The position numbers were made by a program, and so were the translations under genes. Below are positions 33,349 to 63,315 of a stretch of 64,000 bases of DNA, one piece after another. Source of the DNA: an uncultured Gammaproteobacteria bacterium (GTDB lineage Bacteria > Patescibacteriota > Microgenomatia > UBA8517); the NCBI GenBank assembly GCA_964427735.1, contig CAYRUS010000001.1, forward strand, positions 356,747 through 420,746. Direction: 5' to 3'. Numbering within the stretch: position 1 is the first letter of the stretch; each line of letters starts with the position of its first letter. The notes under the pieces are model-generated. The model did not search any database. It saw nothing but the letters and a program-made list of their open reading frames with translations, and was not told where the DNA came from.

Positions 33349-34887
33349 TTATAGATATTCGTTATCAACAGGGCGATATTGCAAAGCTTCTGCAATGTGT
33401 TGTGTTTTAATTTCTTCGGATTTATCTAAATCTGCTATTGTTCTTGCTACTTTAACAACCTTAAAGTAGCTTCTTGCAGAAAGATTCATCTTTGAAATAG
33501 CACTTCGCATAATAATTAAGCACTCATCTGATAACTTGCAATATTTTTTAGCTTCTCTGGTGGTCATTTCACTATTTGATATTATTTTTGTATTTTGAAA
33601 ACGTTTTGTTTGGACATCTCTTGCCTTTTGTACTCTTTTTTGTATTATTGCAGATGATTCTGTATTTTTTTCTGGATTCTTTTCTACAAGCTTTTGCGTT
33701 TCGACTGAGGGAACAGAAATGTGGATGTCAATTCTATCCATAATCGGACCAGATATCCTTTTTTGATATCTTGATATTTGCCCGGGCAGGCACTTGCATT
33801 GCCGCTTTTTATCACCAAAGTAGCCGCATGGACAGGGGTTAGCAGCAGCTACTAGCAAAAAACTAGCAGGAAAAGTTACAGAAGCTTTAGCTCTTGAGAT
33901 ACTAACAATATGATCTTCGAGTGGCTGCCTAAGTGCCTCTAGAACATTTCGAGGAAACTCTGGAAACTCATCTAAAAAAAGTACTCCTCTATGAGCAAGT
34001 GAAATTTCACCAGGAGATGGATTAGTACCACCACCAATCAAACCAATTCTACTTGTTGTATGATGCGGGCTTCTAAATGGCCGGCTTGTGATGAGTGACT
34101 CATTTTGGGTAAGGTTTCCTGTTATTGAAAAGATTTTAGTTACCTCTAGAGATTCATCCTCTGTCAAGTCAGGCAAGATACCGGGAAGTGCTCGAGCTAA
34201 CATCGTTTTCCCTGATCCGGGAACTCCTTTAAGAAAGATATTGTGTCCTCCTGCGGCTGCCACTTCCAATGATCTTTTTGCCTGCTCTTGTCCAATCACC
34301 TCTTTGAAGTCAAAGTCGGAGTTCGATGATTTAATAAGCTTTTTGAGTTCTATCTTTTCACTTTTTTCTATTTTTAGTCTACCAGTTAAATGCCTTACCA
34401 AAGCAAGTAGGTTGTCAAAGGCATAAATATCTATACCAGGAACCACAGCAGCTTCTGTTTCATTCACTTTTGGAAGATATACTTTTTTAAAACCTTTTTC
34501 TTTTGCAAGAAACGCAAGGGGCAAAATTCCTTTAGTGTGTCTTAAAGTACCATCTAACGATAATTCACCGAAAAAAAGTGAGTCAGAAGTGTTTACTGAA
34601 ATTTGACCAGAAGCAATTAGGATTCCGAGAGCTATTGGAAGATCATACACAGGGCCTTCTTTGGGCAAATCAGCAGGTGCTAGATTAATAGTTATTCTGC
34701 TGATGGGAAAATCAGCACCGGAATTTTTAATAGCAGACCGGACTCTCTCTTTTGCTTCTTCAACAGCTTTCCCAGGCAAACCTACAATTGTCAAAGAAGG
34801 TAATCCTTCGTTAGGTATATCAACTTCTACTTCAACCGGTATTGCATTCATTCCAACAGTTGCAGCTGAAGTGATTTTGGCAAGCAT
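33349..34887 (-). CDS. YifB/ComM-family Mg-chelatase-like AAA+ ATPase
   Basis: N-terminal Lon-protease-like domain. Walker A GVPGSGKT, Walker B VLFLDEF. Cys-rich insert CPCGYFGD...CKC. Confidence 0.85.
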   Translation of the reverse strand: MLAKITSAATVGMNAIPVEVEVDIPNEGLPSLTIVGLPGKAVEEAKERVRSAIKNSGADFPISRITINLAPADLPKEGPVYDLPIALGILIASGQISVNTSDSLFFGELSLDGTLRHTKGILPLAFLAKEKGFKKVYLPKVNETEAAVVPGIDIYAFDNLLALVRHLTGRLKIEKSEKIELKKLIKSSNSDFDFKEVIGQEQAKRSLEVAAAGGHNIFLKGVPGSGKTMLARALPGILPDLTEDESLEVTKIFSITGNLTQNESLITSRPFRSPHHTTSRIGLIGGGTNPSPGEISLAHRGVLFLDEFPEFPRNVLEALRQPLEDHIVSISRAKASVTFPASFLLVAAANPCPCGYFGDKKRQCKCLPGQISRYQKRISGPIMDRIDIHISVPSVETQKLVEKNPEKNTESSAIIQKRVQKARDVQTKRFQNTKIISNSEMTTREAKKYCKLSDECLIIMRSAISKMNLSARSYFKVVKVARTIADLDKSEEIKTQHIAEALQYRPVDNEYL

Positions 34888-34957: not shown

Positions 34958-35332
34958 TTACCCTAAATATTTTCTAATTTTTTCTACTACTTGTGTTGGA
35001 GTTAAATCAGCTTTAAGCAAATATTCTTTAGCACCTAACTCTAAAGCCCTTTTTGATTCGGTTTCTTGGGACAAATTAGATAAAACAATAACCGGAACAT
35101 TTTTGCCATATGAATCGGCACGTAATTTTGCAAGCATGTCTATTCCTGAAAGTTTAGGCATCATAACATCCAAAATTATTAAATCCGGTTTTTCTTTTAA
35201 AGCTACTTCTAAGCCTTCTTCTCCATCCTCGGCAGATACTACATCAAAATTTTCGCTTTTAAGTTTTGCTGAATACATTTTTATCAGCATAGGATCATCT
35301 TCAACTAAAAGAATTTTATGATTATTACTCAT
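34958..35332 (-). CDS. stand-alone response-regulator receiver (CheY-like)
   Basis: KILLVEDD, DLIILDVMMP, conserved Lys near the C-terminus. Immediately downstream of the kinase. Confidence 0.8.
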   Translation of the reverse strand: MSNNHKILLVEDDPMLIKMYSAKLKSENFDVVSAEDGEEGLEVALKEKPDLIILDVMMPKLSGIDMLAKLRADSYGKNVPVIVLSNLSQETESKRALELGAKEYLLKADLTPTQVVEKIRKYLG

Positions 35333-35366
35333 CGCAGAATTATACTAGCTTAGTAGGAAGTTAGAA

Positions 35367-36965
35367 TCAACTTTCTTTTCTAATTATAGGCAACTCTATC
35401 CAAAACGTACTTCCTTTTCCTAACTCAGATTCCATTCCTACCTTTCCCTTAAACTTATTTATAAGTAGTTTGGTTATATAAAGACCAAGACCTGAACCTA
35501 TAACTTTACCTGCAGATGACTCTGCTCGCTGAAACTTTTGAAACAACTTCTTCTTATCCTGATCAGAAATTCCTGGACCACTATCATTTACCTCAAGTTT
35601 TACCGTAGAGGACGAAGGATTATACAACTTTACTTCAACATAACCCTTATCCGTATATTTAATTGCATTATTTATTAAGTTTGATACAACTTCAAAAATT
35701 CTATCCTCATCCACATATACAGTGTCTGAAAGATTATTAGAAATTTCTAGTTTATAATCTAGTTTCTTATCTTTAGCTACGTATTCATGTTCAGAGAAAA
35801 TTTTCCGTGCAACATCGCTTAACTTAACATTACCCATCTTAAAGACCATTCTACCTTCCTCAATTCTATTCATATTAAGCATATTGTTGACTAGTCTTAT
35901 TAGTCTATCGTTGCTTGATGAAGCATCTGCTAAATACTCTAAAGCCTCGGACGAGACTTTTCCTGCATCACCTTCCAGCACCATAGAGATATATCCTTTA
36001 ATCGCAGTCATCGGTGCTCTAAGCTCATGTGCAGCAACATTTACAAACTCATCCTTTTGGGCATCAAGCTTTTTTAATTTTTCTGTTAAATCTTCTAATT
36101 GTTGACGCTGCTTTATTTCATTTTTTACACTTCTGATTAAGAATATTCCAAAAATTATAGTAACTAATAAAACTAGAGTATCAACTAACGTTTCAGCTAA
36201 ATCCTGCGAGACAAATAATTTTGAAAATAAAATTATCCAAATAATTACCGTTAATGCTTCTGTTGCAAATATTCTTACATCAAATAAATTATGTTTTACG
36301 ATTGCATATGCTGTAAAACAAAGTAAAAATATAGCAGAAAAGTCTCCGAATATTTGATACTTCACACTCTGAAAGAGCACTTGAGAGATTACATTGAAAA
36401 TTAAATTAGCGCTAACAAAAACAAACACTCCTACCAAAAAGTACTGCAACTTGATCTTCATGTCTTTGGAAAGAGACCTATAACTTTTAAGGCTGTAGAC
36501 CACTATTGAAATAGCTACAAAGGCCGCAAACAAATTAAAAAAGATCGCTAAATTTCCAAAAACAATAGCATTGCCCCAATCCAGCCGAACTACATCTTCA
36601 ATAATTAAATCTGTAAAAAGCGACATCAAAAATAAAGCAACTGATAATAGCAAAATCACATATCCAAGTCTTTTTGCAAATTTACCTGCTTTAAGAAAAT
36701 AAACTATAAAAAAATTATAAAATGATGTTAAAAAAAGTGAGACAGAGGCCCAATTTAATCTATATAAAAGCACTGAATTATTTATACTTATAGACTTTGA
36801 TCCTAGGTAAGAAAAATTTGACCACATTAACACAAAAAATGCCATCATAGTAAACCAAAACTTTAATTGCTTCGAATTACCACCATGTATAACCCACCAA
36901 ACCAGTACAAATCCCAGTGCATTTATTGCTAATAGTATGATTTGAGCAAATAATTCAAAGTCCAT
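35367..36965 (-). CDS. sensor histidine kinase with multi-TM N-terminal sensor
   Basis: About 6-7 TM helices. H-box AAHELRAPMTAIKGY. N-box LINNAIKYT. G-boxes DSGPGIS and GSGLGL. Confidence 0.8.
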   Translation of the reverse strand: MDFELFAQIILLAINALGFVLVWWVIHGGNSKQLKFWFTMMAFFVLMWSNFSYLGSKSISINNSVLLYRLNWASVSLFLTSFYNFFIVYFLKAGKFAKRLGYVILLLSVALFLMSLFTDLIIEDVVRLDWGNAIVFGNLAIFFNLFAAFVAISIVVYSLKSYRSLSKDMKIKLQYFLVGVFVFVSANLIFNVISQVLFQSVKYQIFGDFSAIFLLCFTAYAIVKHNLFDVRIFATEALTVIIWIILFSKLFVSQDLAETLVDTLVLLVTIIFGIFLIRSVKNEIKQRQQLEDLTEKLKKLDAQKDEFVNVAAHELRAPMTAIKGYISMVLEGDAGKVSSEALEYLADASSSNDRLIRLVNNMLNMNRIEEGRMVFKMGNVKLSDVARKIFSEHEYVAKDKKLDYKLEISNNLSDTVYVDEDRIFEVVSNLINNAIKYTDKGYVEVKLYNPSSSTVKLEVNDSGPGISDQDKKKLFQKFQRAESSAGKVIGSGLGLYITKLLINKFKGKVGMESELGKGSTFWIELPIIRKES

Positions 36966-36972
36966 GTAAGTT

Positions 36973-37830
36973 TTATTCCATTATCACTTTACCGAGTAAA
37001 AGAGCAAGAGGCCATAAAATATATTCACCATCCACCATGATGTAAGAAATCTTACGTAGCTGAACGCTTGTTAGATTATTAACTTTTATTAAATAAATTA
37101 AGCTGTATATTGGGAAAAATAGTAAAACTATCGAATAGAATGGTAAAATTCTTAACCATATAGCTAACGCGACTATTGTCCCTGAGGCAATATTTACTAT
37201 ATGTAAATAGTAAACGGTTTTATGGAGACCGAATACTACAGGTAAAGTCTTTAGTCCATCTTTTTTATCTCCACTAACGTCTTTAATATCAAAAAAGGCA
37301 GAATTAATTATCCACCTTAAAAATACAAAAAATAAAAAAGTTAACACTAACCACCTAAGTGGAAAAATAGAATAATGCAGAGGAACAATAAATCCTAGCA
37401 TAGTCCAAAAAAATGCAACATATAAATTCTTTAAAGCTACAACCTTTTTCATTAAGTATTTTACTTTTAATGAATAAATTATTCCTCCTGCCACTATAAT
37501 TACTGCCAATAAAGCAGCAAAGTAAGTTGTAGTAAACAGCAGTGATATAAATAAAGTTATATAAATAATCATTGTGAATATTTGGATATTCCTTGTTTCA
37601 GAGAGATAAATAGAACGCTCCAAATTGTCTTTGTTTTCTTCGATTGTCTCTAACAAATGATCGTGATTATATACAATCTGAGAGACTAAGTATGCAATGA
37701 TAAAAATCTGCCATTCCCATTCAACATCAAGAAGTATAGTTACAGACCATACAATGGAGGCTGCCCCTAAAGACAATAAATGACCACCATATACAAACTC
37801 ACTTATCAGTATTCTTACCAGTTTTTTCAT
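36973..37830 (-). CDS. UbiA-superfamily aromatic/glyceryl prenyltransferase-like membrane protein
   Basis: 8-9 TM. Second Asp-rich motif DIKDVSGDKKDGLKTLPV is typical of UbiA/DGGGP-synthase-like enzymes. The first motif is degenerate (NHDHLLE). Confidence 0.5.
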   Translation of the reverse strand: MKKLVRILISEFVYGGHLLSLGAASIVWSVTILLDVEWEWQIFIIAYLVSQIVYNHDHLLETIEENKDNLERSIYLSETRNIQIFTMIIYITLFISLLFTTTYFAALLAVIIVAGGIIYSLKVKYLMKKVVALKNLYVAFFWTMLGFIVPLHYSIFPLRWLVLTFLFFVFLRWIINSAFFDIKDVSGDKKDGLKTLPVVFGLHKTVYYLHIVNIASGTIVALAIWLRILPFYSIVLLFFPIYSLIYLIKVNNLTSVQLRKISYIMVDGEYILWPLALLLGKVIME

Positions 37831-37900
37831 CTACTTTGATAATACAAGCTTCTACTCACTAATCCAACTAAATAAATGATGTTACGGCAAAAAGGAAGAT

Positions 37901-38977
37901 TTACATATCTCTTTCCATAACAAAAACTGCTAATTCTCTTAGATTTTTTGCTGCTTTTTTGTTTTTAAAAAAAGTTAAATCTTCATCAAATACTTTTAAT
38001 GCATGATCTTTATACTCCTCTGCCCGTTTTTTTGCATATGCAATACTTCCACAATCATCCAACATTCTCACTACTCTCAACACTTCTTGGAGTGACTTTT
38101 CTTCTCTTTTTTTGTTTAAGACTTTCACAACATAATCCCGATCTCTTCCAGAAGCATTTTTCAAAAAGTGACTCATTATCAAAGTTTTTTTCCCTTCGTA
38201 TATATCATTTGCAAATTCCTTAAGCCCATTAAAATCGCTTGTAATGTCTAATATATCGTCTATTAACTGAAAACATCTCCCTAGGTTAAAACCAAACTCA
38301 GTAATTTTATACAATTGATCTTTGCTTGCCTCTCCGATAATAGACCCAAGTCTCAAAGGACCTGTTATTGAATAATAAGAAGATTTACCATCTGCAATAA
38401 AATACCAATCATTATCAGAAAATGTTTTAATCTTTTCCTGCATTAACTTAATCTCTGATGACTGGCCAATAATAGTTCTAGTAATTATGCTATAAAATTC
38501 ATCAACAACTTTGTCTGCAATTTTTTTATCAAGCTTTTTGTAAATATCAAATATAATGCGCCACATTACAGCATGAAGAGCATCACCGGAATTAATTGCT
38601 TGTTCAGCTCCGTAAATCCTATGAAGCGCAGGTTTACCTCTCCTTTTGACAGAATTGTCCTCAAAATCATCGTGGATAAGAATCCACTCTTCAGATAGCT
38701 GCATTGCTGCTGCTGCCTTTAATGAGTACCTTTTCTTTTTGCCCATAGCTTCAGCAGCTAACATCAACAATGTGGGTCGTAAATATTTGCCCTTTCTTTC
38801 TGGATAATCTCTTGTTATTTTCCAAAAGTATTTCTCATCAGATTTATATTTTCCGTTAATTTTAAAATGATCAGGAAGGTCTGGTGTATATAAATAGGTT
38901 TCTATCTCAGGCCAAATAATATTTTTATAACTAGAAAGGATTACTAATGCGGGATGCGTGTGTTTCTTGTTCCCCAT
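37901..38977 (-). CDS. trans-polyprenyl diphosphate synthase
   Basis: FARM LIHDDFEDNSVKRRGKP and SARM FQLIDDILD. Confidence 0.8.
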   Translation of the reverse strand: MGNKKHTHPALVILSSYKNIIWPEIETYLYTPDLPDHFKINGKYKSDEKYFWKITRDYPERKGKYLRPTLLMLAAEAMGKKKRYSLKAAAAMQLSEEWILIHDDFEDNSVKRRGKPALHRIYGAEQAINSGDALHAVMWRIIFDIYKKLDKKIADKVVDEFYSIITRTIIGQSSEIKLMQEKIKTFSDNDWYFIADGKSSYYSITGPLRLGSIIGEASKDQLYKITEFGFNLGRCFQLIDDILDITSDFNGLKEFANDIYEGKKTLIMSHFLKNASGRDRDYVVKVLNKKREEKSLQEVLRVVRMLDDCGSIAYAKKRAEEYKDHALKVFDEDLTFFKNKKAAKNLRELAVFVMERDM

Positions 38978-39134: not shown

Positions 39135-39608
39135 TTACCTAGTCACGGTAATTGTTGGTGTCAATTCACCAGTAGCACTCGCAACTACACGTCCGTCTGA
39201 ATCAACATAAATTGTATATCCTGTATTTGCATCGGTGCCTGTTGACGGATCTGCAGGAATAGAAGCAATATAAGTTGGTACGATTACTTCTGTACCTGCT
39301 TCGTTCGTAGCAGCTCCTAAGTCAAAACAAGGTGCAGTGTCACCAATACAAGTAGCTGATGAAGGAAAGTTTGTTTCAGTATCATCTCCATCAGTATCAG
39401 GTAAATTACCATCGTGCTCGGCAGCGAATTGATATATAGAACTCGTTATAGAGTGAAGATCAGCTCGACGTTGTTGATCTCTTGCTAAAGCAAATTGTCT
39501 ACCTGGGTTAACTGCTACTACGACTATTGCAGCCAAAATAGCAATAATACCGATAACAACTAATAACTCAATAAGGGTAAAACCTCTTGTGTTTTTATTT
39601 AGTTTCAT
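39135..39608 (-). CDS. type IV (major) pilin with prepilin-peptidase signal
   Basis: Class III signal KNTRG/FTLIELLVVIGIIAILAAIVV with Glu at +5. Ser/Thr/Asp-rich C-terminal half. Own terminator. Confidence 0.8.
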   Translation of the reverse strand: MKLNKNTRGFTLIELLVVIGIIAILAAIVVVAVNPGRQFALARDQQRRADLHSITSSIYQFAAEHDGNLPDTDGDDTETNFPSSATCIGDTAPCFDLGAATNEAGTEVIVPTYIASIPADPSTGTDANTGYTIYVDSDGRVVASATGELTPTITVTR

Positions 39609-39659
39609 TAATATCTTTCACCCCCTATCATATTATCCTATTACTAGTATTACATATAT

Positions 39660-39890
39660 CTACTCACCTAAGTCAAGTCTATCTACATTCTCAGGTACTA
39701 AAGACTGCTGAGCAGAACGTAATGATGTCACATCAAGATTAACCTCACTTGTTTGCTCAACTTTAACCTCTAAAGTCTCATGCCAAGCAGAAAACATCGT
39801 CCGAACCACAACAGCTATTAGAACCGCAAGTAGACCTAAAACTATAAATATTGCTAAATAAAAACGATTTAATTTGCTAAATTTATTCAT
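39660..39890 (-). CDS. small single-TM protein in the pilus operon, hypothetical
   Basis: 76-aa ORF with an N-terminal TM. Overlaps the upstream gene by 8 nt. Confidence 0.3.
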   Translation of the reverse strand: MNKFSKLNRFYLAIFIVLGLLAVLIAVVVRTMFSAWHETLEVKVEQTSEVNLDVTSLRSAQQSLVPENVDRLDLGE

Positions 39891-40536
39891 TTATATATAA
39901 AAGTATTCCATAGTCTAAAATATAAATATTATCATTGCTGTTTTTACTAAGATCAAAACTTACAGGTCTAAAAAGATAGGGTAAATCTTGAATTTCTTCT
40001 ATAGCTTGTGTGATTTTATTGATATCACCATTAACTGAAATTTTTATTGGATAACCCATTGTAGAAGTTTTGTCTGTAACTTTTTGATTTGATACAAACG
40101 AAAAGTTATCTACAATTCCATTTTTCTTCATTTGATCTAATTCTCCAACAAAATCTACAAGTCTTTGCTCATCTGCTATGAAATTTTCAATGAAGGAAAT
40201 TCTCTCTTCATTTGCCGCAAGCTGAGATCTCAAAACTCCTTCATCATAGTTTATCTCAGTCAGACTATCTTGTTCTAATGTCTCAGGAAGGTTCCCAATT
40301 TTAATTATAAAAATAGTTAATCCAGCAAACAATAAAATATTAATAATACCAAGAATGATAAATCGAGTTGATCTTGAAGAACGCAGACTTGTCTTTTTCT
40401 TTTCCAGCTGATTTACAATAGAATTATTCACATTATTCTCATTTTCTAGCTTATTTTCCTCAGCTTTATTTATGCTTTGTGGAAATTCTTTTTGAGAATC
40501 TTTTTTTTGTTGTGTGCTTTTTATTTGGTCTGGCAT
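39883..40536 (-). CDS. PilO/PilN-like bitopic pilus assembly protein
   Basis: Cytoplasmic N-terminus, one TM, coiled-coil periplasmic part. Position directly after the pilM-pilN fusion. Confidence 0.4.
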   Translation of the reverse strand: MPDQIKSTQQKKDSQKEFPQSINKAEENKLENENNVNNSIVNQLEKKKTSLRSSRSTRFIILGIINILLFAGLTIFIIKIGNLPETLEQDSLTEINYDEGVLRSQLAANEERISFIENFIADEQRLVDFVGELDQMKKNGIVDNFSFVSNQKVTDKTSTMGYPIKISVNGDINKITQAIEEIQDLPYLFRPVSFDLSKNSNDNIYILDYGILLYINE

Positions 40537-40537
40537 G

Positions 40538-41968
40538 TTATTGCAATTTCAACTTTGGTTTTGTAACCGGTTTTAAGGGTAAGTATTCAAAAGTCATATC
40601 AAAAGAAATATCTGCCTCTTGTTCCAAAGCATTTACAGGAATAACAACATTTCCAAAATCACCACTTGACTCTAAACTTGTTTTAAAGGAAAGTAAGTCA
40701 CTTCTCGAAGGGGCAGTTCCTGCTACTGATACTCCTCCTTTATCTAAATCTAACTGGTAGCTATCAATAACTACTCCTTCTGGTTTCGCTTCATTGATTG
40801 GGTTAATAATTTCTTGAGGCATTGTTCTGGCTTCACTAATAGCTAATATTTTTTTTGTTAAGCTATTTATTTTATTAACCCTATCTAATACTTCCTGCGA
40901 TTGGGCAGGTAAGTTTTCCTGTATAGAATTCCCATTTGAAAACCTGCTTTGCATAAAAATATAAAACGAAATAGCTGATAATAAACAAACAAGTAAAACA
41001 AATGCCGAAAACCCAAACAAAAAAGTCATCTTAAGCCCAAAATCCTTTTCCTGGCGACTTTCATAAAAAACAGCAGGAAGAAGATTAACAGATTTGCTAT
41101 CAGCTGGTGCTTCTGGGGTTGCCATTTGCGATGAAATAGGAACAAGATACTCGTTAAATTCTTCACTAGACAGGCCATCAACTGATGGAGGAATACCTTC
41201 AGGAGCAAGTCCTGTTAACTGCTCTATTTTTTGATAAAAAGAAGCATTAAATCCTTTCCCTGCAACAACAATTTTTTCCGGCTTGAATTTATTATAATGC
41301 TGGAGCATCCTTCTAATCGTATTCAAAACAACATCTTCTTCATCAACAGCAACAACAGAACTTCCTGCAATTCGCCAACCCTTTGACAAAACGAGAATTA
41401 CTTCCTCGAAGTTTTTATATATTATTAATCTACTAAGATCTTCTTTTCCAGCAATTCTAACTAAAGATAATGCTTGAGTTTCTACAGCAACAGGAGTTAA
41501 ATCTGCAAAAATTACTGCATCTATATACCCATACAAAAGTTCTTTATCGATTGCTACCACCAAATATTGAATAGATGTACCAACCTCTCCAGCAATTTTC
41601 CAATCAACGATCATCTCATTTGTGGCAGATGGAAGAAAATCCTTTACTTGCCATTTTAAAGCTTCTGTTACTTCTTCATCTTTTAGTCTTGGAAGATCTA
41701 TTAACTTTGTGTAAGTTGAAAATTCTGGTATTACCAACGAAACTTGAGATTCCTCTATACCTACTTCCTTAATACTTTTTTTGATTAAATCACTGAGTTT
41801 TTGTTTATCTACTACTTTGTAATCAACAATTGTATTTTCCGGCAAATTCACATTTGCTATCGTACGTGTTTTTTTGAGACTTGTGTCATTAAGATAAACA
41901 ATTTGGAGCTTATCTTTGGTAAAAGATATTGTAAAAAATTCACTTTTTATCATGGCAGGTATATCCAT
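40538..41968 (-). CDS. pilM: type IV pilus assembly protein PilM fused to a PilN-like C-terminal domain
   Basis: Actin-like ATPase fold over about 300 aa. Then NLLP motif and a TM helix (FLFGFSAFVLLVCLLSAISFYIF) plus a periplasmic tail. Confidence 0.65.
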   Translation of the reverse strand: MDIPAMIKSEFFTISFTKDKLQIVYLNDTSLKKTRTIANVNLPENTIVDYKVVDKQKLSDLIKKSIKEVGIEESQVSLVIPEFSTYTKLIDLPRLKDEEVTEALKWQVKDFLPSATNEMIVDWKIAGEVGTSIQYLVVAIDKELLYGYIDAVIFADLTPVAVETQALSLVRIAGKEDLSRLIIYKNFEEVILVLSKGWRIAGSSVVAVDEEDVVLNTIRRMLQHYNKFKPEKIVVAGKGFNASFYQKIEQLTGLAPEGIPPSVDGLSSEEFNEYLVPISSQMATPEAPADSKSVNLLPAVFYESRQEKDFGLKMTFLFGFSAFVLLVCLLSAISFYIFMQSRFSNGNSIQENLPAQSQEVLDRVNKINSLTKKILAISEARTMPQEIINPINEAKPEGVVIDSYQLDLDKGGVSVAGTAPSRSDLLSFKTSLESSGDFGNVVIPVNALEQEADISFDMTFEYLPLKPVTKPKLKLQ

Positions 41969-42078
41969 TATATAATAAGTATTAGACGATGTTTAAATCA
42001 TTATGTGACAAAATCTTTTCAGTCAATTGACCATAAAAAAATTAGTCCCAACAAGCCTTAGTTGTTATACTGGAAATA

Positions 42079-43434
42079 ATGCCTACACTGCCTAAAACAA
42101 TTTTCATTAAAGGTAACACGATCATAGGTATTCTTATTGGTTTAGGTGTTCTTTCGATTCTTTCCTATACTGTTATTATATTGTCCACTACAACATACCA
42201 ACTGGTTGGTTATACAAGAGCCAGAACAGTTGCAAGAAATATAGCTGTCACTCAAATTGAGATGATCAGAAATATGCCATATGATGAGATTGGAACACAA
42301 GGAGGCATCCCACAAGGGGATTTACTTCAAACCCAAGACATTGTAGAAAATGGTCAAAATTATCAAATTAGAAGAACTATAACTTATGTTGATGATCCAT
42401 TTGACCAACTGACCCCAATTGATACGTTGCCTACTGATTACAAAAGAGTTCGTATCGAAATCTCATGGGAAGGCGTATCAAAATCAAATGCAGCACCAGT
42501 AGTATTAACAACTGATGTGGTTCCAAAAGGAGTTGAATCTACTGAAGGTGGAGGTACATTATCTATTTTGGTTTTTAATTCTCAAGGTTTACCAGTACCT
42601 CAAGCTCAAGTCCATATTGTATCTAATGATCAAACAAACCCAGTCGATTTAACTCAATTTACAAGTGATACAGGACATATAGTTTTACCCGGTACGCCTG
42701 CCTGCCTGGAGTGCTATGAAATTACAGTAACAAAAGATGGGTTTAGTATTGACAAAACTTACTCAAATACAGAAGTTGATACTCCTGATAAACCTCATAT
42801 TAGTGTCATAGAGGGAAACCTGACAGAAACTAGCTTTGCGATCGATAGAGTTTCCTCACTCACTTTAAATACATACGGATCAAGAGAAGACGGCTTTCCT
42901 ATTATGGTAAATGTACCTATTATAGTCAAAGGAGAAAAAACAATTGGGGTAGATGTAGCAGATCAACCTGTTTATAAATTTAGCCAAGAGTTTGTTACAA
43001 ATGAGAATGGAGAATTAACAATTGAAAACCTCGAATGGGACAACTATTACATCTCAGTTCCAGATCAATCTTCTTACTCTATAAGCGGTCTTAGTAAAAC
43101 CATGCCATATTCTATTTTGCCAAACACAGACGACTCTTTGGATATTTCTATATCTTCATTTACACCAAATTCCCTACTCACGGCTTTTGTGGACGAAAAC
43201 AAATCACCGATAGCTTCTGTCTCAGCTATTCTAAAAGATGGCAATGTACCAATTGCAACAATCTCCAGTGGACTAGAAAATGACCCAGACTTTGGACAAG
43301 CGTTCTTTAGTGATCTAGCCCAAAAAACTTATGCTTTGGAAGCAACTGCAGCTGGGTTTATAGATTTTAGCGGAATAGTGAATATATCGGGACAAGTTTA
43401 TGACTTAATACCACTCACAAAAGAAGAGTTGTAA
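42079..43434 (+). CDS. large N-terminally anchored pilus-associated protein (minor-pilin-like, degenerate prepilin motif)
   Basis: N-terminus KGNTIIGILIGLGVL resembles a class III signal but lacks Glu+5. First gene of the divergent module upstream of two prepilin-type genes. Confidence 0.35.
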   Translation: MPTLPKTIFIKGNTIIGILIGLGVLSILSYTVIILSTTTYQLVGYTRARTVARNIAVTQIEMIRNMPYDEIGTQGGIPQGDLLQTQDIVENGQNYQIRRTITYVDDPFDQLTPIDTLPTDYKRVRIEISWEGVSKSNAAPVVLTTDVVPKGVESTEGGGTLSILVFNSQGLPVPQAQVHIVSNDQTNPVDLTQFTSDTGHIVLPGTPACLECYEITVTKDGFSIDKTYSNTEVDTPDKPHISVIEGNLTETSFAIDRVSSLTLNTYGSREDGFPIMVNVPIIVKGEKTIGVDVADQPVYKFSQEFVTNENGELTIENLEWDNYYISVPDQSSYSISGLSKTMPYSILPNTDDSLDISISSFTPNSLLTAFVDENKSPIASVSAILKDGNVPIATISSGLENDPDFGQAFFSDLAQKTYALEATAAGFIDFSGIVNISGQVYDLIPLTKEEL

Positions 43435-43437
43435 ATT

Positions 43438-44052
43438 ATGAAAAACAAGCAAACATATAGTCTAAAAGGTTTTACACTTATAGAAATAATAGTAGCAACC
43501 TCAATTTCTGTAACTCTCCTTGCTGGAGTTTATCTGGTCCAAAGAATCATTGCCGACACACAATCAGTTACTTGGGACAGTACAATAAAAGTTGAAATTG
43601 CAAATAAAGCCACCGCACCAATAATTAAAGAAATTAGAACTATGAGACCAAGCCAAGACGGAAGATATCCACTTGAAACTGCAGAAAGCCATGAAATTGT
43701 ATTCTATTCAGATATAGATTTCGACGAAAGCGTAGAAAGAGTTAGATATGTTCTAGATGGGAATGTTCTTAGAAAAGGTGTTACAGAACCAAGCGGTTCT
43801 CCGATTGGTTATAACCAAGAAGATGAAGAGTTAACTATTATAAGCGACACAATACAAAATGAGTCAAATCCTGTTTTTTATTACTATAATGAAGATTGGC
43901 CCTCAAATAATAACCCTCTAAATTATCCTGCTCCTACTTCAGAAGTTAAAGTTGTTAAAGTCATGCTAAAAATAGGTAGTAGTCTTGAAGATAATCAGCC
44001 TTATGAGGTTGAAGCTTTTACTAATATTAGAATGTTGAAAGAAAATCTCTAA
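43438..44052 (+). CDS. prepilin-type N-terminal cleavage/methylation domain protein (minor pilin/pseudopilin)
   Basis: LKG/FTLIEIIVATSISV canonical motif. Coupled 3 nt after the upstream gene. Confidence 0.7.
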   Translation: MKNKQTYSLKGFTLIEIIVATSISVTLLAGVYLVQRIIADTQSVTWDSTIKVEIANKATAPIIKEIRTMRPSQDGRYPLETAESHEIVFYSDIDFDESVERVRYVLDGNVLRKGVTEPSGSPIGYNQEDEELTIISDTIQNESNPVFYYYNEDWPSNNNPLNYPAPTSEVKVVKVMLKIGSSLEDNQPYEVEAFTNIRMLKENL

Positions 44053-44054
44053 AT

Positions 44055-45452
44055 ATGAAAAAAGAAGCAGGTTCAGTTACGCCAGCCTTGTTAGTTATTA
44101 TTGGCACGATGGTTGTTGTTATTTATGGTCTTTTGTTGATTTTAGCAATGCAGTTAAATTATTCCCACAGACAAATTGCTTCTGAAGAGGCTCTTCATAT
44201 TGCTGAAGCAGGTATCAATTATTACAGATGGCATCTTGCTCATGATCCAAATGATTACACAGATGGAACTGGTAATCCAGGTCCTTATGTCCGCGAATAT
44301 CACGACCCTGAAGGAGGTTTAGTAGGATACTATGAATTAGAGATCACACCACCCGAATCCGGATCTTCAATTGTTACATTAAAGTCGACAGGTTGGACAA
44401 ATCAATTCCCTTCAGTAAAGCGTACAATAACTGCAAAATACGGAAAACCTTCATTAGCGAGATTTTCTTTCTTATCAAATGCAAGCAGCTGGTATGGTGA
44501 AGGTATAACAGTAAATGGACAAATACACTCAAATAACGGAATAAGGATGGACGGCATCAACACTTCCTCAACTACAAGTGCTAAAGACACTTATATGTGT
44601 GGATCAGAAACAGGGTGTCATCCTCCAGATAACAGACCTGGGGTTTGGGGATTAGGACCAAATTATAATCTTTGGGAATTTCCTGTTCCATCCATTGATT
44701 TTGATTCTATATCATTTGATTTCGCCCAGATGAGAGCAGAAGCTCAAGCTAATGGATTGTATTTGAATGATTCAAAGGCAGAAGGTTATCATCTAGTATT
44801 TAATTCAAATGGAACTTTTGATGTATACAAAGTTAGAAATACCGACTTTATTAGAGGTTATAGTGTTCCTGGACAAGGATTAGGACAAGAAGGTCAAGGA
44901 GGATGTAGAAGATTATTCCAAATAATTACAAAAGAAGATCATGTCGCTACTTATATTGTTGATGATAATCCAATCGTTTTTATTGAAGATCACGTGTGGG
45001 TAGAAGGCACGGTAAAAGGAAGACTAACATTAACTGCTGCCACGTTCCCAATTGCTTCCAGTGATGTAGATATTTGGATAAAAAACAGCATTAAATACAC
45101 CAATTATGACGGTAGTGATATATTAGGGCTAATATCCCAAAATAATATTTACTTTGTTCGCGATGTGCCTGAAAATTTCCAAGTTGATGCAGTTTTAATT
45201 GCCAAAAATGGAAAAATTCTTAGACATGCTTATTATAGTGGTTGTGGAGGTACATTCGGGGGAATTAAGCAAAATCTAACGATCAATGGTTCCTTGATAT
45301 CATTTCATAAATCATACTGGAATTTTGGTGATCCTCTAGTATCTGGGTTTATTTCAAGAACTATAAATTACGATGGTAATGCGCTATATAACCCCCCACC
45401 TTATTTCCCTACATCTGGAGAGTTTGAGTTTATATCTTGGAAAGAAGAATAG
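44055..45452 (+). CDS. PilX-like pilus assembly/minor pilin protein
   Basis: N-terminal hydrophobic helix LLVIIGTMVVVIYGLLLILA typical of PilX-N-like proteins. 465 aa. Coupled to the upstream pseudopilin gene. Confidence 0.4.
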   Translation: MKKEAGSVTPALLVIIGTMVVVIYGLLLILAMQLNYSHRQIASEEALHIAEAGINYYRWHLAHDPNDYTDGTGNPGPYVREYHDPEGGLVGYYELEITPPESGSSIVTLKSTGWTNQFPSVKRTITAKYGKPSLARFSFLSNASSWYGEGITVNGQIHSNNGIRMDGINTSSTTSAKDTYMCGSETGCHPPDNRPGVWGLGPNYNLWEFPVPSIDFDSISFDFAQMRAEAQANGLYLNDSKAEGYHLVFNSNGTFDVYKVRNTDFIRGYSVPGQGLGQEGQGGCRRLFQIITKEDHVATYIVDDNPIVFIEDHVWVEGTVKGRLTLTAATFPIASSDVDIWIKNSIKYTNYDGSDILGLISQNNIYFVRDVPENFQVDAVLIAKNGKILRHAYYSGCGGTFGGIKQNLTINGSLISFHKSYWNFGDPLVSGFISRTINYDGNALYNPPPYFPTSGEFEFISWKEE

Positions 45453-45453
45453 T

Positions 45454-46215
45454 TTATAAAGTAGGGAGAGGTGTAGGTGTGACTAAGCAAAGAGTATTTG
45501 AAATTATAGTACGAGATGAAACTGTTTCTGATCCAAGATCACAATCAAAAACATACGGCACTTCACCTTGATAGGCACCACTAGAAGATGGCGTAGGTGT
45601 TGGTGTCACAGCTGGGTCAGCACAATAGCTTAGCTTCCACAACCTACAGCCCGGTGGAGCAATGAGATCACCACTTCCTGATGTTGGAGTTGGTGTAGTA
45701 GTCCCGCCTGGATTATCAAAGTAATCAGAAATATCATCATCACTCCCATCATTATCATCTCCTCCACCGCCACCCGACCCTGGACCATTATCAACAGTTT
45801 CTTCTATAACCACTGACACCAATTCGTCATCATTAATTTTAATCGCAGAACCATCACCAAAAGTAACTGTTGTATTGCCACTAAGATTATTACTTTGAAG
45901 ACGAAGGTAATCTAAGAATTCATTTATTTTTTCATTTGACCAAACTTCGTTGTAGATCTGACCATTTTTGGATTCCAATGTATAGTTTCCATCTGTGTCA
46001 ATGGTAATTAAATCTCCATCCTTCTCAACAGAAACCAACAGACTTTCACCAACATTGGTATCTACAGAGTTTTTACCAGATCTAATTAAAATCACTGCCA
46101 TTAACACAATCATTAACAATCCAAAAACAAAAACTAACAACATTCCTCTCTTTGTTTTTATTACTTTTAAAATATTTTCCATGTTATCTTTGTACCTCCT
46201 GCGACAAGTTTCCAA
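45454..46215 (-). CDS. secreted low-complexity protein (Gly/Asp and Thr/Pro linkers) within the pilus locus
   Basis: N-terminal TM. GPGSGGGGGDDNDGSDDD and TPTPT repeats. Four Cys in the C-terminal part. Overlaps the pilC 3' end. Confidence 0.35.
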   Translation of the reverse strand: METCRRRYKDNMENILKVIKTKRGMLLVFVFGLLMIVLMAVILIRSGKNSVDTNVGESLLVSVEKDGDLITIDTDGNYTLESKNGQIYNEVWSNEKINEFLDYLRLQSNNLSGNTTVTFGDGSAIKINDDELVSVVIEETVDNGPGSGGGGGDDNDGSDDDISDYFDNPGGTTTPTPTSGSGDLIAPPGCRLWKLSYCADPAVTPTPTPSSSGAYQGEVPYVFDCDLGSETVSSRTIISNTLCLVTPTPLPTL

Positions 46216-47401
46216 CTATGCTATATATCGGAGCAATCATAACAATAACCATTATTCCTACAGCCACTCCGATAATAAGCATAAGAACAGGCTCCAACAA
46301 AGCAGTGGCTTTTTTAAGACTGTGATCAACTTCTTTCTCGTAAAATTCTGCCATTTCTTCTAAGACAGATTCCAGAGTACCTGTTTTTTCACCTGCTCTG
46401 ACTGTTTGAACCATCACAGTAGGAAATGAATATTTTGAGTCCATCAAAATCTGAGAAAGACTTTCACCTCTAGAAACTCCAGCACTAAAGCCTATCGCCT
46501 GCTTTTGTAAGTGAGGCTGGCTAATACTTTTAGCAGCAACGTCAAGGGACTCTACAATAGACACACCACTTTTAAGCAAAGTTGAAAGAGTTCTGGCAAA
46601 TCTAGCTACATCTATTTGATCCATCATTTTCCTAACAATCGGCAGTTTCCCAAACATCTGAAGGATAACTCTTCTTGTTTTATAGTAGTAAAACAAGAAA
46701 AAAACTAGTCCAAATATAATCCCTAATACAATCAAAAATAAAAACGTATTCTCACCTACAAATGTACCAAAACCCATAAATAATTTGGTCATAGCAGGCA
46801 GTTCAATATCCATTTTTGTAAATGCTGAAGCTATCCTAGGCAATACAAACACAAGCATCAAAACCCCATTGCCGAGCATTGCTACCAAGATGACTGCAGG
46901 ATACATAAGCGAGCCTTTAATTTTTTGAGTTAATTCGTAGGTCGCCGACAGTTGCTTTGATAAATAATCAAAAGACTTTGCAAGGGACCCAGTTTCTTCT
47001 CCAGCTTTTATCATTGTTAAAAAAACAGAATCAAAATCCCCAGGATATTGAGAAAGCACAGAGGAAACACTATTCCCTTTTCTTGTCTGAAAAGCAATAT
47101 CTGAAAGAATCTGCTGAAGCTTTTTCTTTTTTGCCTCTTGTCGAATAATCTCAACTGCTTCAGGTACAGACAACCCAGAACGGAGCATTGTAGCAAGGAG
47201 TCGACACAATTCGGCCTTTTCTGGCAACGTGATTTTACCGGAGAATAGTGAGTGTCTACCAGTACCTACCTGTTTAACAGTAAGGATCTGCAATTCTTCT
47301 GCTTTTAGAATGGAAACCACTTCTTCTTGAGAAGTAGCTTGTAGTGTGTCTTCTTTAATTGAACCAAATTTATCTTTTGCTTTATATAAAAATAGCGGCA
47401 T
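46184..47401 (-). CDS. pilC: type IV pilus platform protein PilC (GspF family)
   Basis: Two repeated T2SSF domains, three TM segments. Immediately downstream of pilB. Confidence 0.85.
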   Translation of the reverse strand: MPLFLYKAKDKFGSIKEDTLQATSQEEVVSILKAEELQILTVKQVGTGRHSLFSGKITLPEKAELCRLLATMLRSGLSVPEAVEIIRQEAKKKKLQQILSDIAFQTRKGNSVSSVLSQYPGDFDSVFLTMIKAGEETGSLAKSFDYLSKQLSATYELTQKIKGSLMYPAVILVAMLGNGVLMLVFVLPRIASAFTKMDIELPAMTKLFMGFGTFVGENTFLFLIVLGIIFGLVFFLFYYYKTRRVILQMFGKLPIVRKMMDQIDVARFARTLSTLLKSGVSIVESLDVAAKSISQPHLQKQAIGFSAGVSRGESLSQILMDSKYSFPTVMVQTVRAGEKTGTLESVLEEMAEFYEKEVDHSLKKATALLEPVLMLIIGVAVGIMVIVMIAPIYSIVGNLSQEVQR

Positions 47402-47402
47402 A

Positions 47403-49082
47403 TTAGTCTTCTCTAACTACTCTAATCACTTCTTCAATAGTTGTTAATCCGGCTGAAACTTTATTTAATCCGTCTTGTAATAATGTTGTCATTCCTTCTT
47501 TTATAGCTTGATCTTGTATTTGACTACTGGTTGCTTTGTTTGCAATAAGACTTCTTACCTTTTCACTTACATCTAGTGCTTCATAAATACCAATTCTACC
47601 TAGATAACCATTTCCTCCACACTCTTGACATCCTTCACCTTTATAAAATCTTTGATTAGATAAGTCAGTTCCCAAATCTTCACTTAGTTTTCCTAAAACA
47701 GGAGTGTCTGGCTTATACTCTTTAAGACAACTTGAACAAATCTTCCTTACAAGTCTCTGAGCCATTACAATGTTCACAGTAGAAGCAAGTAGATAGCCTT
47801 CTACCCCCATATCAAGCATTCTAGGTACAGCCCCTGAAGCTTGGTTTGTATGCAAAGTTGATAAAACAAGGTGACCAGTCGTAGCAGCATTCACTGCAAT
47901 TTTTGCTGTTTCTGGATCACGAATCTCACCTACCATAATAATATCTGGATCATGTCTAAGAAGTGACCTTAGCCCTGCCGCGAAATCAAGCCCTGCTTTT
48001 GGGTTAACCTGAATTTGGCTCACTCTATTTATTCCATATTCAATAGGATCTTCAATTGTACAGATTTTCACTTCGACCGTGTTTAAAATATTCAATACAG
48101 AATATAAAGTAGTTGTTTTACCGGAACCAGTAGGACCAGTCACTAAAACCATTCCGTGTGGTCTATTGATACTTTTTTGCAAAGACTTTAGAATTGATCC
48201 GCTTAATCCTAACTCTTCTAAGCTGCTTGGCCGATTAGTTTCCAACAATAGCCTCATAACCACGTTTTCTCCATAAAACCCAGGGATTATTGAAATACGA
48301 AGGGAAATTTTATCGTCATCTATAGTAAATTTGTATCGACCGTCTTGAGGTATTCTATGTTCGTCTATTTTTAGATTAGAAAGAATCTTAATTCTTGCAA
48401 TTAACGCATTTTCTATACCTCTGTCTAATTTGACAATATCTTCTAATACACCATCTATTCGAAACCTTATGACTACTTGCTCTGCCATTGTCTCGATATG
48501 TACATCAGATGCTCTCTCTGCGACAGCATAGCTAAGAATGGTGTCCAACACTTTAATAATAGGAAGCTTTTCTGCTGATTTTACAGGATCTTCGTTGGTA
48601 GGAGCTTTTTTAATATTCTCCTCAATTACTGCATCAAAGTCTTTGCGAATATTTTTTTTATACTGACCAAGCGCCCGTCTTATGGATTCTCTACTCGAAT
48701 AAAAAGGTGTAACTTGAAGACCTGTCTGCCTACGAGCTAATTCTATTGCTTCAAAATCCTGTGGATTTTGCATTGCAATTTTTAGTTCCCTAGCATTGGC
48801 ATCAAAAGGAATCATCCAAAAATTACGTGCAACTTTTTCTGGGATGAGATTCAAAACATTTTCTGGAATAACCAACCTACCAACATTTGTGTATGGAACT
48901 TGGAGGTGTTCTGAAATTAATTTCGCAAGAGCATCCTCATTAATGAGTCCTCTAAATAGTAAAATGTCTGTTATATCTCGGCCAAAATCCTCTGAAGTTT
49001 TGGCAGCTTCTTCAAAATCCTTTTCTGAAATATATCCTGATCCAACAAGAATTTGCTTTAAACGGTCTTTGTTTAAGTCCAT
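47403..49082 (-). CDS. pilB: type IV pilus assembly ATPase PilB (GspE family)
   Basis: Walker A GPTGSGKTTTLYS. Asp/His boxes. Tetracysteine CSSC...CQEC. N-terminal GspE_N-like region. Confidence 0.9.
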   Translation of the reverse strand: MDLNKDRLKQILVGSGYISEKDFEEAAKTSEDFGRDITDILLFRGLINEDALAKLISEHLQVPYTNVGRLVIPENVLNLIPEKVARNFWMIPFDANARELKIAMQNPQDFEAIELARRQTGLQVTPFYSSRESIRRALGQYKKNIRKDFDAVIEENIKKAPTNEDPVKSAEKLPIIKVLDTILSYAVAERASDVHIETMAEQVVIRFRIDGVLEDIVKLDRGIENALIARIKILSNLKIDEHRIPQDGRYKFTIDDDKISLRISIIPGFYGENVVMRLLLETNRPSSLEELGLSGSILKSLQKSINRPHGMVLVTGPTGSGKTTTLYSVLNILNTVEVKICTIEDPIEYGINRVSQIQVNPKAGLDFAAGLRSLLRHDPDIIMVGEIRDPETAKIAVNAATTGHLVLSTLHTNQASGAVPRMLDMGVEGYLLASTVNIVMAQRLVRKICSSCLKEYKPDTPVLGKLSEDLGTDLSNQRFYKGEGCQECGGNGYLGRIGIYEALDVSEKVRSLIANKATSSQIQDQAIKEGMTTLLQDGLNKVSAGLTTIEEVIRVVRED

Positions 49083-63225: not shown

Positions 63226-63244
63226 TTGTAAGTATCTTCTTGGG

Positions 63245-63315
63245 TCGGGGTACCAGGAATCGAACCTGGACCAGACGGCCCCCAGCCGCCTATTCTGCCA
63301 CTAAACTATACCCCG
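63245..63315 (-). tRNA. tRNA-Pro (anticodon GGG)
   Basis: Minus strand: CGGGGUA UA GUUU AGUGGCA GAAU A GGCGG CUGGGGG CCGUC UGGU CCAGG UUCGAUU CCUGG UACCCCG A. Cloverleaf with U33, anticodon GGG, G37, T-loop UUCGAUU, discriminator A. 3' CCA not encoded (CCC follows). Confidence 0.85.

Follow-up and report, generated by a model that had tools for sequence, protein, structure and literature searches.

We describe a conserved four-gene module in a 64-kb stretch of DNA (64,000 nucleotides; positions 356,747–420,746 of contig CAYRUS010000001.1 in the assembly GCA_964427735.1), hereafter called the window. The window DNA is patescibacterial, as the named homologs of its proteins are from Patescibacteria, and its host is a bacterium of the candidate phyla radiation (CPR). 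On the minus strand, positions 34958–38977 encode, in this order, a trans-isoprenyl diphosphate synthase (IDS), a membrane protein of the UbiA superfamily (hereafter UbiA-like), a HisKA_7TM sensor histidine kinase, and a receiver-only response regulator. The best reading of this module, to which we give an even chance, is that it combines a synthase of an isoprenoid product with a dedicated membrane receptor kinase. The original prediction, which was made from the letters of the window, had flagged only the IDS and UbiA-like genes; the real feature is larger, and that pair is the biosynthetic half of the module. Both the clade to which the UbiA-like protein belongs and the enzyme–kinase module, which is widespread in CPR, are new here.

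The four genes are closely spaced, with gaps of 70 nt between the IDS and UbiA-like genes, 7 nt between the UbiA-like and kinase genes, and 34 nt between the kinase and response regulator genes, all of them too short for any peptide gene. The IDS (358 aa; positions 37901–38977) matches the Pfam family polyprenyl_synt (PF00348; E = 1.8e-46, 158.9 bits against a threshold of 27). Its first aspartate-rich motif (FARM) is DDFED (aa 103–107, nt 38657–38671) and its second (SARM) is DDILD (aa 240–244, nt 38246–38260), so that its description as a canonical trans-IDS is borne out, as is the co-direction of its gene with that of the UbiA-like protein (285 aa; 36973–37830). The latter scores 55.8 bits against the Pfam UbiA family (PF01040; gathering score 34.2), in an alignment that spans residues 80–252 only. 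The kinase (532 aa; 35367–36965) consists of a seven-helix sensor domain of the HisKA_7TM type (aa 1–290, nt 36096–36965) and of HisKA (PF00512; E = 1.7e-15) and HATPase_c (E = 2.2e-25) domains (nt 35367–36095). The response regulator (124 aa; 34958–35332) has a receiver domain (Response_reg; E = 1.8e-25) and no output domain. With the invariant phospho-acceptor H313 in HisKA, the HATPase_c domain, and the receiver domain, the last two genes have the components of a two-component system.

The evidence for the module comes from two collections of loci. For the first (the forward set), we used an alignment of UbiA-like proteins to fetch 48 loci from contigs representing one genome per species, clustered the neighboring genes, and measured their distances from the UbiA-like gene. 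Thirty-five loci are bacterial, and their record titles include Saccharibacteria, Paceibacterota/Parcubacteria, Berkelbacteria, Dojkabacteria, Nealsonbacteria, and Moraniibacteriota among the CPR groups. In 34 of the 35 bacterial loci, the UbiA-like gene is followed, in the same orientation, by the gene for a kinase with homologous N-terminal 290 residues, and in 28 of these 34 the two genes overlap or are separated by at most 15 nt. An IDS gene is found within 10 kb of the UbiA-like gene in 20 of the 35 loci and is directly adjacent to it (≤200 nt) in eight. No other partner of the UbiA-like gene is as conserved as the kinase, and the IDS is less constant. The original prediction was thus right that a two-component system adjoins the pair, but such a linkage is more than mere neighborhood. 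In 15 loci, a receiver-only response regulator from a cluster with a median length of ~124 aa is encoded no more than 6 kb from the UbiA-like gene, and the module is retained across loci while the flanking genes differ.

Several other genes recur in these cassettes, namely those for geranylgeranyl reductase, NUDIX proteins (beside or fused to the IDS), S-adenosylmethionine (SAM) methyltransferases, FAD oxidoreductases, UPF0047, and radical SAM proteins. The geranylgeranyl reductase, NUDIX, methyltransferase, and FAD oxidoreductase neighbors are enzymes such as one would expect to tailor a small isoprenoid product. In four Saccharimonas-type loci (L020, L028, L033, and L034; 10807–11700 in each), a CMAS/UbiE-like SAM methyltransferase gene is inserted between the UbiA-like and kinase genes, implying methylation of the product in these bacteria.

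The second collection (the reverse set) started from the kinase. A full-length search showed the kinase family to be far larger than the UbiA-like clade, and a word-indexed search with the sensor domain alone gave eight matches. We fetched an independent set of 80 metagenome loci with sensor-domain patterns taken from a 10-sequence alignment. Among the 73 of these loci that have enough upstream sequence, and that represent the isoprenoid-linked subfamily by construction, because the patterns include GD[FY]S, 67 (~92 per cent) have an isoprenoid enzyme gene upstream of the kinase. The enzyme is UbiA-like in most of them: its gene is directly upstream of the kinase in 43 loci, mostly with a 4-nt overlap, and one gene away in three. 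In one further locus, an IDS gene is directly upstream.

The remaining 20 loci have in this place a gene for a soluble protein of ~300–400 aa with a DDxxD motif, and these proteins form two subfamilies. In the larger one (12 loci), the DD of DDxxD and an N-x3-T-x3-E triad are invariant; its members remain below the Pfam thresholds, and in the Protein Data Bank (PDB) they match a single entry, a plant terpene synthase, in an alignment on precisely these two motifs. Two tested members of the other subfamily pass the gathering score of Pfam Terpene_syn_C_2 (39.8 and 40.5 bits, against 23.7). These terpene-synthase-like genes (for example, L080:4967-5962, L106:4989-5969, L102:286-1182, and L121:720-1820, with 16 further loci) are on CPR-type contigs and are usually preceded by IDS, UPF0047, and NUDIX genes. 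A literature search found no paper describing terpene synthases in CPR. Two loci hold both enzyme types: L008 (46–4982) encodes a UbiA-like protein, a geranylgeranyl reductase, a terpene-synthase-like protein, and the kinase, and in L069 (3982–7075) the terpene-synthase-like gene is split into two open reading frames (ORFs) and may be decaying.

The exchange of one enzyme type for the other can be seen in a pair of near-identical genomes with the same gene order, represented by loci L072 (4104–8182) and L080 (3942–8100), whose pairwise identities we compared. The IDSs of the two loci are 96.8 per cent identical (97 per cent at the nucleotide level) and the response regulators 92.5 per cent (95.5 per cent). 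The slot between the IDS and kinase genes is occupied by a UbiA-like gene in L072 (5129–6001) and by a terpene-synthase-like gene in L080, and the contents of the slot are unrelated at the nucleotide level. Between the two kinases, each 544 aa long, identity is 61 per cent over residues 1–290 and 88 per cent over residues 291–544. Specifically, helices 1–6 of the sensor domain are at 50–57 per cent identity, and identity rises sharply near residue 211. It looks as if the enzyme gene and the first six transmembrane helices of the sensor had been replaced as a single unit. This co-change is the strongest indication that the sensor domain may be matched to the enzyme or its product.

Across loci, sensor domains are also associated with the type of partner enzyme. 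In a nearest-neighbor test on 72 sensor domains, 53 share the partner type of their neighbor, compared to a random mean of 34 and a maximum of 49 over 2000 shuffles. Deeper in the tree, the sensor types linked to UbiA-like and to terpene-synthase-like enzymes interleave.

Four look-ups in the wider kinase family placed one kinase behind an IDS-IDS-UbiA array and three next to genes for ThiF (E1-like) proteins. Two sensor signatures of the isoprenoid-linked kinases, NxxFN (N187-x-x-F190-N191 in the window kinase; nt 36393–36407) and GD[YF]S (G207-D208-F-S210; nt 36336–36347), are absent from the three ThiF-linked kinases. In L053 (1473–7236) and L055 (1326–7001), the kinase is located behind genes for ThiF, a Glu/Leu/Phe/Val dehydrogenase, and a 504–508-aa adenylating enzyme similar to PaaK/F390 synthetase; in L054 (3288–6993), a FeeM-like gene (N-acyl amino acid synthase family) lies beside ThiF, near a related kinase. 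A receiver protein of 125–153 aa directly follows the kinase in all three loci, and ThiF-linked HisKA_7TM kinases with a receiver-only response regulator occur in Woesebacteria, WWE3, and other CPR genomes. The ThiF-type loci suggest a general cassette design in CPR, in which a small-molecule synthase is combined with a seven-helix kinase.

For the window kinase, the resemblance of the sensor domain to its Pfam family is weak. The window kinase matches HisKA_7TM (PF16927) with 17.0 bits, below the gathering score of 28.6, yet over positions 2–222 of the 224 in the model; 27 of 31 partner kinases match the family at E ≤ 0.1 (best 1.1e-11), and close homologs hold a precomputed PF16927 match. 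In the AlphaFold2 (AF2) model of the domain (pLDDT 92.5), seven helices form a bundle, with a small hairpin and no large extracytoplasmic domain. In a Foldseek search, this model had no solved relative; the search returned weak matches to seven-helix proteins resembling G protein-coupled receptors (GPCRs; E ≥ 3e-3, TM-score 0.4–0.5), which we treated as matches to a generic bundle, rejecting homology to GPCRs. The 842-aa partner kinase of L011 (10816–13344) has a tandem duplication of the seven-helix sensor domain (residues 24–253 and 282–564).

The fold of the UbiA-like protein agrees with the predicted nine-helix UbiA-superfamily protein. An AF2 model built with 119 homologs (pLDDT 95, pTM 0.92) shows nine long helices and a short N-terminal helix in an all-helical bundle, and its best Foldseek matches in the PDB are 7bpu, 6m31, 4tq3/4, and 4od4 (probability 1.0, TM-score 0.6–0.7, 10–17 per cent identity). 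The second aspartate-rich motif (motif II; D181-I-K-D184-V-S-G-D188, that is, D181-x-x-D184-x-x-x-D188; nt 37267–37290) lies in the region DIKDVSGDKKDGLKTLPV (aa 181–198), and its three Asp residues are invariant in the 119 homologs, in accord with the claim that this motif is kept.

The canonical first motif, NDxxDxxxD, is absent from the window protein. The sequence noted in its place, NHDHLLE (aa 55–61), is at the end of the second transmembrane helix (residues 40–60) and in the following loop, where motif I is expected, and in register with the homologs the motif reads D57-H58-x-x-E61-x-x-x-E65...N69..R72 (nt 37615–37662). Over the 119 sequences, the D57 column contains N in 81 and D in 38, the H58 column H in 72 and R in 45, the E61 column E in 90 and D in 19, and the E65 column D in 100; N is found in 115 of 119 at N69 and R in all 119 at R72. 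The family motif is therefore [N/D][H/R]xx[E/D]xxxD...NxxR, in which positions 1, 5, and 9 (N, D, and D in the canonical motif) retain a carboxylate or amide group capable of metal binding, and position 2 is the only one of changed character. Judged by this conservation, motif I is probably not decayed but a family-wide, in-register variant: the substitution that the original prediction reported is real, and the word "degenerate" does not fit it. Residues invariant in all 119 homologs are G15, H17, S20, Y47, R72, K124, K134, D181, K183, D184, D188, D267, and E269. Conserved residues of catalytic type argue for a probably active enzyme. Further conserved features are an N-terminal segment, EFVYGGHLLSLG (aa 11–22), and a C-terminal VDGEY (nt 37021–37035).

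We found no firm placement of this protein in a characterized clade such as MenA, an outcome that the original prediction had named as speaking against itself: no subfamily cut-off in NCBIfam was reached. The prenyltransferase model PRK13591 is the best for all tested members of the clade, archaeal copies included, and membership in it was rejected at 27–67 bits (59 for the window protein) against a cut-off of 238. The suggestion of chemistry like that of digeranylgeranylglyceryl phosphate synthase (DGGGPS) found no support, with scores of 18.8, 16.7, and 15.2 bits against cut-offs of 296, 353, and 278. MenA (13.8 bits against 277) and the (bacterio)chlorophyll synthases BchG (20.3 against 212) and ChlG (18.2 against 313) were rejected likewise, and neither the 4-hydroxybenzoate UbiA models nor those of heme O synthase (CyoE/CtaB) match the window protein at E ≤ 1. 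A word-indexed search found at least 147 close relatives, and a hidden Markov model scan of 1.84 billion representatives found 521 clusters (50 per cent identity) at E ≤ 1e-30; there are no fusion proteins among the best 150 representatives, which are 209–384 aa long. By these scores, the protein appears to lie outside every characterized UbiA clade and to belong to a sharply separated clade of its own, found in CPR bacteria and some archaea.

The archaeal members are from Methanobacteriaceae, Nitrososphaerota, and one Thermoplasmatales bin. Archaea that carry clade members must also have a canonical DGGGPS; since the clade copies score far below the DGGGPS cut-offs (16–30 bits), the clade is a separate paralog. 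A KaiC-like ATPase gene is nearby in three archaeal loci from the Thermoplasmatales bin, Nitrososphaerota, and an unclassified archaeon, namely L012 (151–3886), L022 (8047–12329), and L029 (8025–11855). L022 and L029 also have a gene for a winged-helix protein nearby and an IDS gene directly downstream of the UbiA-like gene, whereas L012 has two UbiA-like copies in tandem.

Compared with the solved archaeal UbiA proteins (the DGGGP synthases 7bpu and 6m31, Archaeoglobus fulgidus 4tq3-6, and Aeropyrum pernix 4od4/5), the window protein has in common the nine-helix intramembrane fold, an aspartate-rich motif II at the end of the sixth helix followed by GxxTxP, and conserved basic residues in the regions of helices 2–3 and 4–5. 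In the crystallized homologs from A. fulgidus and A. pernix, motif I likewise departs from NDxxDxxxD and consists of DxxxD only (PMC9835599). The differences are an identity of 10–17 per cent with a root-mean-square deviation of 4–7 Å, a sequence profile that matches in the motif II region only (E = 0.005), and, in the window clade, an invariant N-terminal YGGHLxS, His or Arg as the second residue of motif I, the C-terminal VDGEY, and a near-obligate kinase partner in bacteria. UbiA-type terpene synthases (Fma-TC, EriG, and Tps1A/Tps2A, mainly fungal) have NxxxG/AxxxD as motif I and an extended motif II, QDxxDxxxD, and mutagenesis has shown the three Asp residues of DxxDxxxD to be essential (PMC9835599). 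These enzymes have a UbiA fold and a non-canonical motif I, and ionize a prenyl diphosphate without an aromatic acceptor. The window protein is like them in the DxxDxxxD of motif II and in the filling of its slot by a soluble terpene-synthase-like protein in sister genomes; by comparison with the published motifs, it is unlike them in that its clade has an acidic residue (E/D) in the middle of motif I, where they have G/A, and F instead of Q before motif II. No kinase link has been described for UbiA-type terpene synthases.

For the IDS, the best NCBIfam matches are the archaeal-type geranylgeranyl diphosphate (GGPP) synthase and IdsA models, all under their cut-offs (NF041003, 171 bits against 500). 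Its nearest solved relative is the GGPP synthase of Thermus thermophilus (1wmw; E = 1e-49), followed by those of Pyrococcus horikoshii (1wy0) and Geoglobus acetivorans (5jfq). In the alignment with 1wmw, the window protein has Trp (W98; within nt 38672–38686) at position -5 before the FARM, and a Trp is also aligned five residues before the DDIED of 1wmw. Prediction of chain length from the residues before the FARM, as had been proposed, therefore gives a short-chain product, with C20 (GGPP-type) the likeliest length. Position -5 holds an aromatic residue in some of the IDSs encoded near the UbiA-like gene and a small one in others, which defines at least two subtypes across loci, and this variety suggests that IDSs may have been recruited repeatedly.

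Functional coupling of the enzyme and the kinase is well supported; we infer catalytic activity, chain length, the nature of the product, its sensing by the kinase, the direction of coupling, and the output in the following scheme. The IDS would make a C15–C20 allylic diphosphate, most likely GGPP. The UbiA-like enzyme would bind this substrate in the membrane, with Mg2+ held by D57/E61/E65 and D181/D184/D188 and the diphosphate by R72, K124, and K134, and would ionize it. The prenyl cation would then be converted to a hydrophobic terpenoid, either by transfer to an acceptor or without one, as in UbiA-type terpene synthases; the latter is possible in view of the soluble terpene-synthase-like enzymes whose genes can occupy the slot in its place. 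The product would stay in the membrane, where the seven-helix sensor domain would read its presence or level, and the kinase would signal through the CheY-like response regulator to a protein target. A more far-reaching and more tentative proposal, which may be true but which we would not expect to be, is that CPR make their own terpenoid signal from GGPP, by UbiA-fold or interchangeable soluble terpene-synthase-like enzymes, and detect it with a dedicated seven-helix receptor kinase in an undescribed form of autocrine, quorum, or symbiont–host signaling. If the related kinases linked to ThiF, dehydrogenase, and adenylating-enzyme genes are counted, "synthase plus 7TM receptor kinase" would be a general CPR cassette design.

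Several points weigh against a synthase paired with its own receptor. The genomes of L072 and L080 are mosaic elsewhere too, with the next gene 82 per cent identical and the one after it 50 per cent, and the divergence of their sensors could partly reflect recombination hot spots instead of co-adaptation. Motif conservation within the reverse set is biased by the retrieval patterns. The register of motif I was set by position in the AF2 model and by spacing, without a significant alignment to a solved UbiA enzyme: both the single sequence and a 32-sequence profile matched PDB chains around motif II only (E = 0.005–0.03), and hhalign of the 119-sequence alignment against an approximate sequence of Escherichia coli UbiA aligned the motif II region only (probability 11 per cent). 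A source of isopentenyl diphosphate (IPP) and dimethylallyl diphosphate (DMAPP) was not found in the window, which has no methylerythritol phosphate (MEP) pathway, mevalonate pathway, or Idi gene. The archaeal homologs have no kinase partner, so the enzyme can work without one, and the response regulator has no DNA-binding domain. A literature search found no paper on the pairing of UbiA-like proteins and kinases. Finally, synteny gives a link without a direction, and the kinase could instead sense the state of the membrane and control the enzyme.

Such a loop of membrane homeostasis, of the des-desK-desR type, is unlikely in our view but is the main rival. The kinase would sense the thickness, fluidity, or curvature of a membrane made of scavenged lipids, and the enzyme would be the effector that adds isoprenoid modifiers. 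A polytopic kinase that lacks a large extracytoplasmic domain and is encoded beside a membrane-lipid-directed enzyme would suit this role, and the geranylgeranyl reductase neighbors fit the tailoring of bulk lipids. CPR are generally thought to lack fatty-acid synthesis, so that isoprenoids are among the few lipids that they can make, which is a further point in favor. However, the sensor half co-varies with enzyme type in otherwise near-identical genomes, and its signature motifs differ from those of sister kinases linked to non-lipid enzymes, which is hard to explain for a generic physical sensor. In addition, the response regulator has no DNA-binding domain with which to control the enzyme gene, and one enzyme of ~285 aa served by one IDS offers little foundation for supplying lipid in bulk. 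It is improbable that the enzyme instead prenylates a head group of aromatic or quinone-like type, whether synthesized or scavenged, in the manner of MenA, UbiA, or tocopherol-type enzymes, to give a redox or antioxidant lipid. The UbiA fold and motif II are compatible with this chemistry, and the UbiE/CMAS-like methyltransferase of some Saccharibacteria loci, together with nearby geranylgeranyl reductase, resembles quinone tailoring; beyond such occasional neighbors in other genomes, the proposal of a scavenged quinone head group gained no support. Scores of 14–20 bits on the MenA, BchG, and ChlG models (cut-offs 212–313), the ability of a soluble class I terpene-synthase-like enzyme to fill the same slot, and the gene content of the window all speak against it: the window has no head-group pathway or respiratory genes and, as originally stated, no quinone or heme biosynthesis families among its ORFs of at least 100 aa.

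To two further explanations we give little credence. The first is ether lipid synthesis of the archaeal type, with geranylgeranyl transfer to a glycerol-phosphate derivative. The DGGGP synthases 7bpu and 6m31 are the top structural matches, the IDS is of the GGPP type, and some cassettes contain a geranylgeranyl reductase, but the DGGGPS equivalog models give 15–19 bits against 278–353, and the archaeal clade members, also far under these cut-offs, are therefore extra paralogs. Moreover, neither PcrB/geranylgeranylglyceryl phosphate synthase (GGGPS) nor glycerol-1-phosphate (G1P) dehydrogenase families are among the annotations of the window or of the annotated conserved neighbors at other loci, and a tight kinase link is not typical of lipid-core genes. 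The other is that the UbiA-like protein is a non-catalytic accessory subunit, a co-sensor that binds polyprenyl diphosphate and assists an intramembrane-sensing kinase in the manner of LiaF or BceAB. The non-canonical form of motif I, the translational coupling of the protein to the kinase, and a Pfam match confined to part of the protein would agree with such a role, but residues of the diphosphate- and Mg-binding type are invariant or conservatively kept in the 119 sequences, IDS genes appear to have been recruited repeatedly, the cassettes contain tailoring enzymes, and the protein can be replaced by a soluble enzyme whose DDxxD and NSE-type motifs are intact. Least credible is chance adjacency of housekeeping genes, in which the IDS feeds farnesyl diphosphate (FPP) or GGPP to undecaprenyl phosphate synthesis and the UbiA-like gene is separate. 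The IDS may also be the only short-chain synthase of the cell, the window encodes a penicillin-binding protein, and the IDS is often not adjacent to the UbiA-like gene (8 of 35 loci directly, 20 of 35 within 10 kb); yet the enzyme–kinase linkage holds in 34 of 35 forward and 67 of 73 reverse loci, across CPR groups and in two independent collections, 4-nt gene overlaps are common, and the module is kept while its flanks change.

Read as a synthase with its receptor, the module has analogs among known signaling systems. The ComQXPA system of Bacillus subtilis has an isoprenoid-handling enzyme, a polytopic kinase, and a response regulator in one operon, and its kinase, ComP, which is of the HisKA_3 type, senses the prenylated product. 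We kept the analogy but rejected membership in this system: no ComX-like peptide fits into the gaps of the window module, the kinase has HisKA (PF00512), and the response regulator is receiver-only. The transferase of the window module also differs in its UbiA fold, and its IDS looks like a genuine chain-elongating synthase. In cqsA-cqsS and luxM-luxN, which serve hydrophobic autoinducers, a synthase gene is located directly beside that of a multi-pass kinase that reads the product, and in des-desK-desR the kinase DesK reads a membrane state that is changed by the enzyme. Unlike these systems, the window module has unrelated enzyme and sensor families, isoprenoid chemistry, a receiver-only response regulator, and a CPR host. 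By analogy, it may work most like the synthase–receptor cassettes (comQXPA, cqsA-cqsS, and luxM-luxN) or like des-desKR, while being a member of none.

The rest of the window encodes type IV pilus genes, SecDF, the penicillin-binding protein, MiaA, and other housekeeping genes. The type IV pilus cluster (39135–49082; pilin-like N_methyl proteins, a PilM/PilN fusion, T2SSF, and T2SSE/PilB) is directly upstream of the module, but we rejected a link between the two, as the clusters of genes found repeatedly near the module at other loci include none for type IV pili. Just downstream of the kinase and response regulator genes is a gene for a 512-aa ChlI/Mg-chelatase-like AAA+ protein (33349–34887), which we take, from its domain set (ChlI/Mg_chelatase/Mg_chelatase_C), to be a ComM/YifB-type ATPase. 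A ChlI/Mg-chelatase-like protein recurs a few genes downstream in the ThiF-type cassette L053 (9227–10291), and the kinase–response regulator locus may be syntenic between the window and L053, with the upstream synthase genes exchanged. The tRNA dimethylallyltransferase MiaA (IPPT; E = 3e-59) is encoded at 52962–53930, which means that the cell requires DMAPP. An OmpR-type response regulator (Response_reg and Trans_reg_C) at 11751–12425 has no histidine kinase among its annotated neighbors. The sole match in tRNA and Rfam scans of the window is a tRNA-Pro at 63243–63315, and counts of predicted promoters and terminators in the 34.7–39.7 kb region are not above those in shuffled sequence.

CPR bacteria make up a large share of bacterial diversity, have minimal genomes, and are thought to scavenge most of their lipids; little is understood of how they perceive their partners or their own condition. 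The retention of the module in several CPR groups makes it likely to be important for their lifestyle. The findings add to the UbiA superfamily a new clade of ~520 clusters at 50 per cent identity with a distinctive catalytic-type signature, offer a candidate class of ligand (isoprenoids) for the orphan HisKA_7TM sensor domain, and provide a directly testable enzyme–receptor pair. Should the product serve as a signal, episymbiotic bacteria would have a chemical language of a new kind; should it modify membranes, the module would show how lipid-scavenging cells tune theirs.

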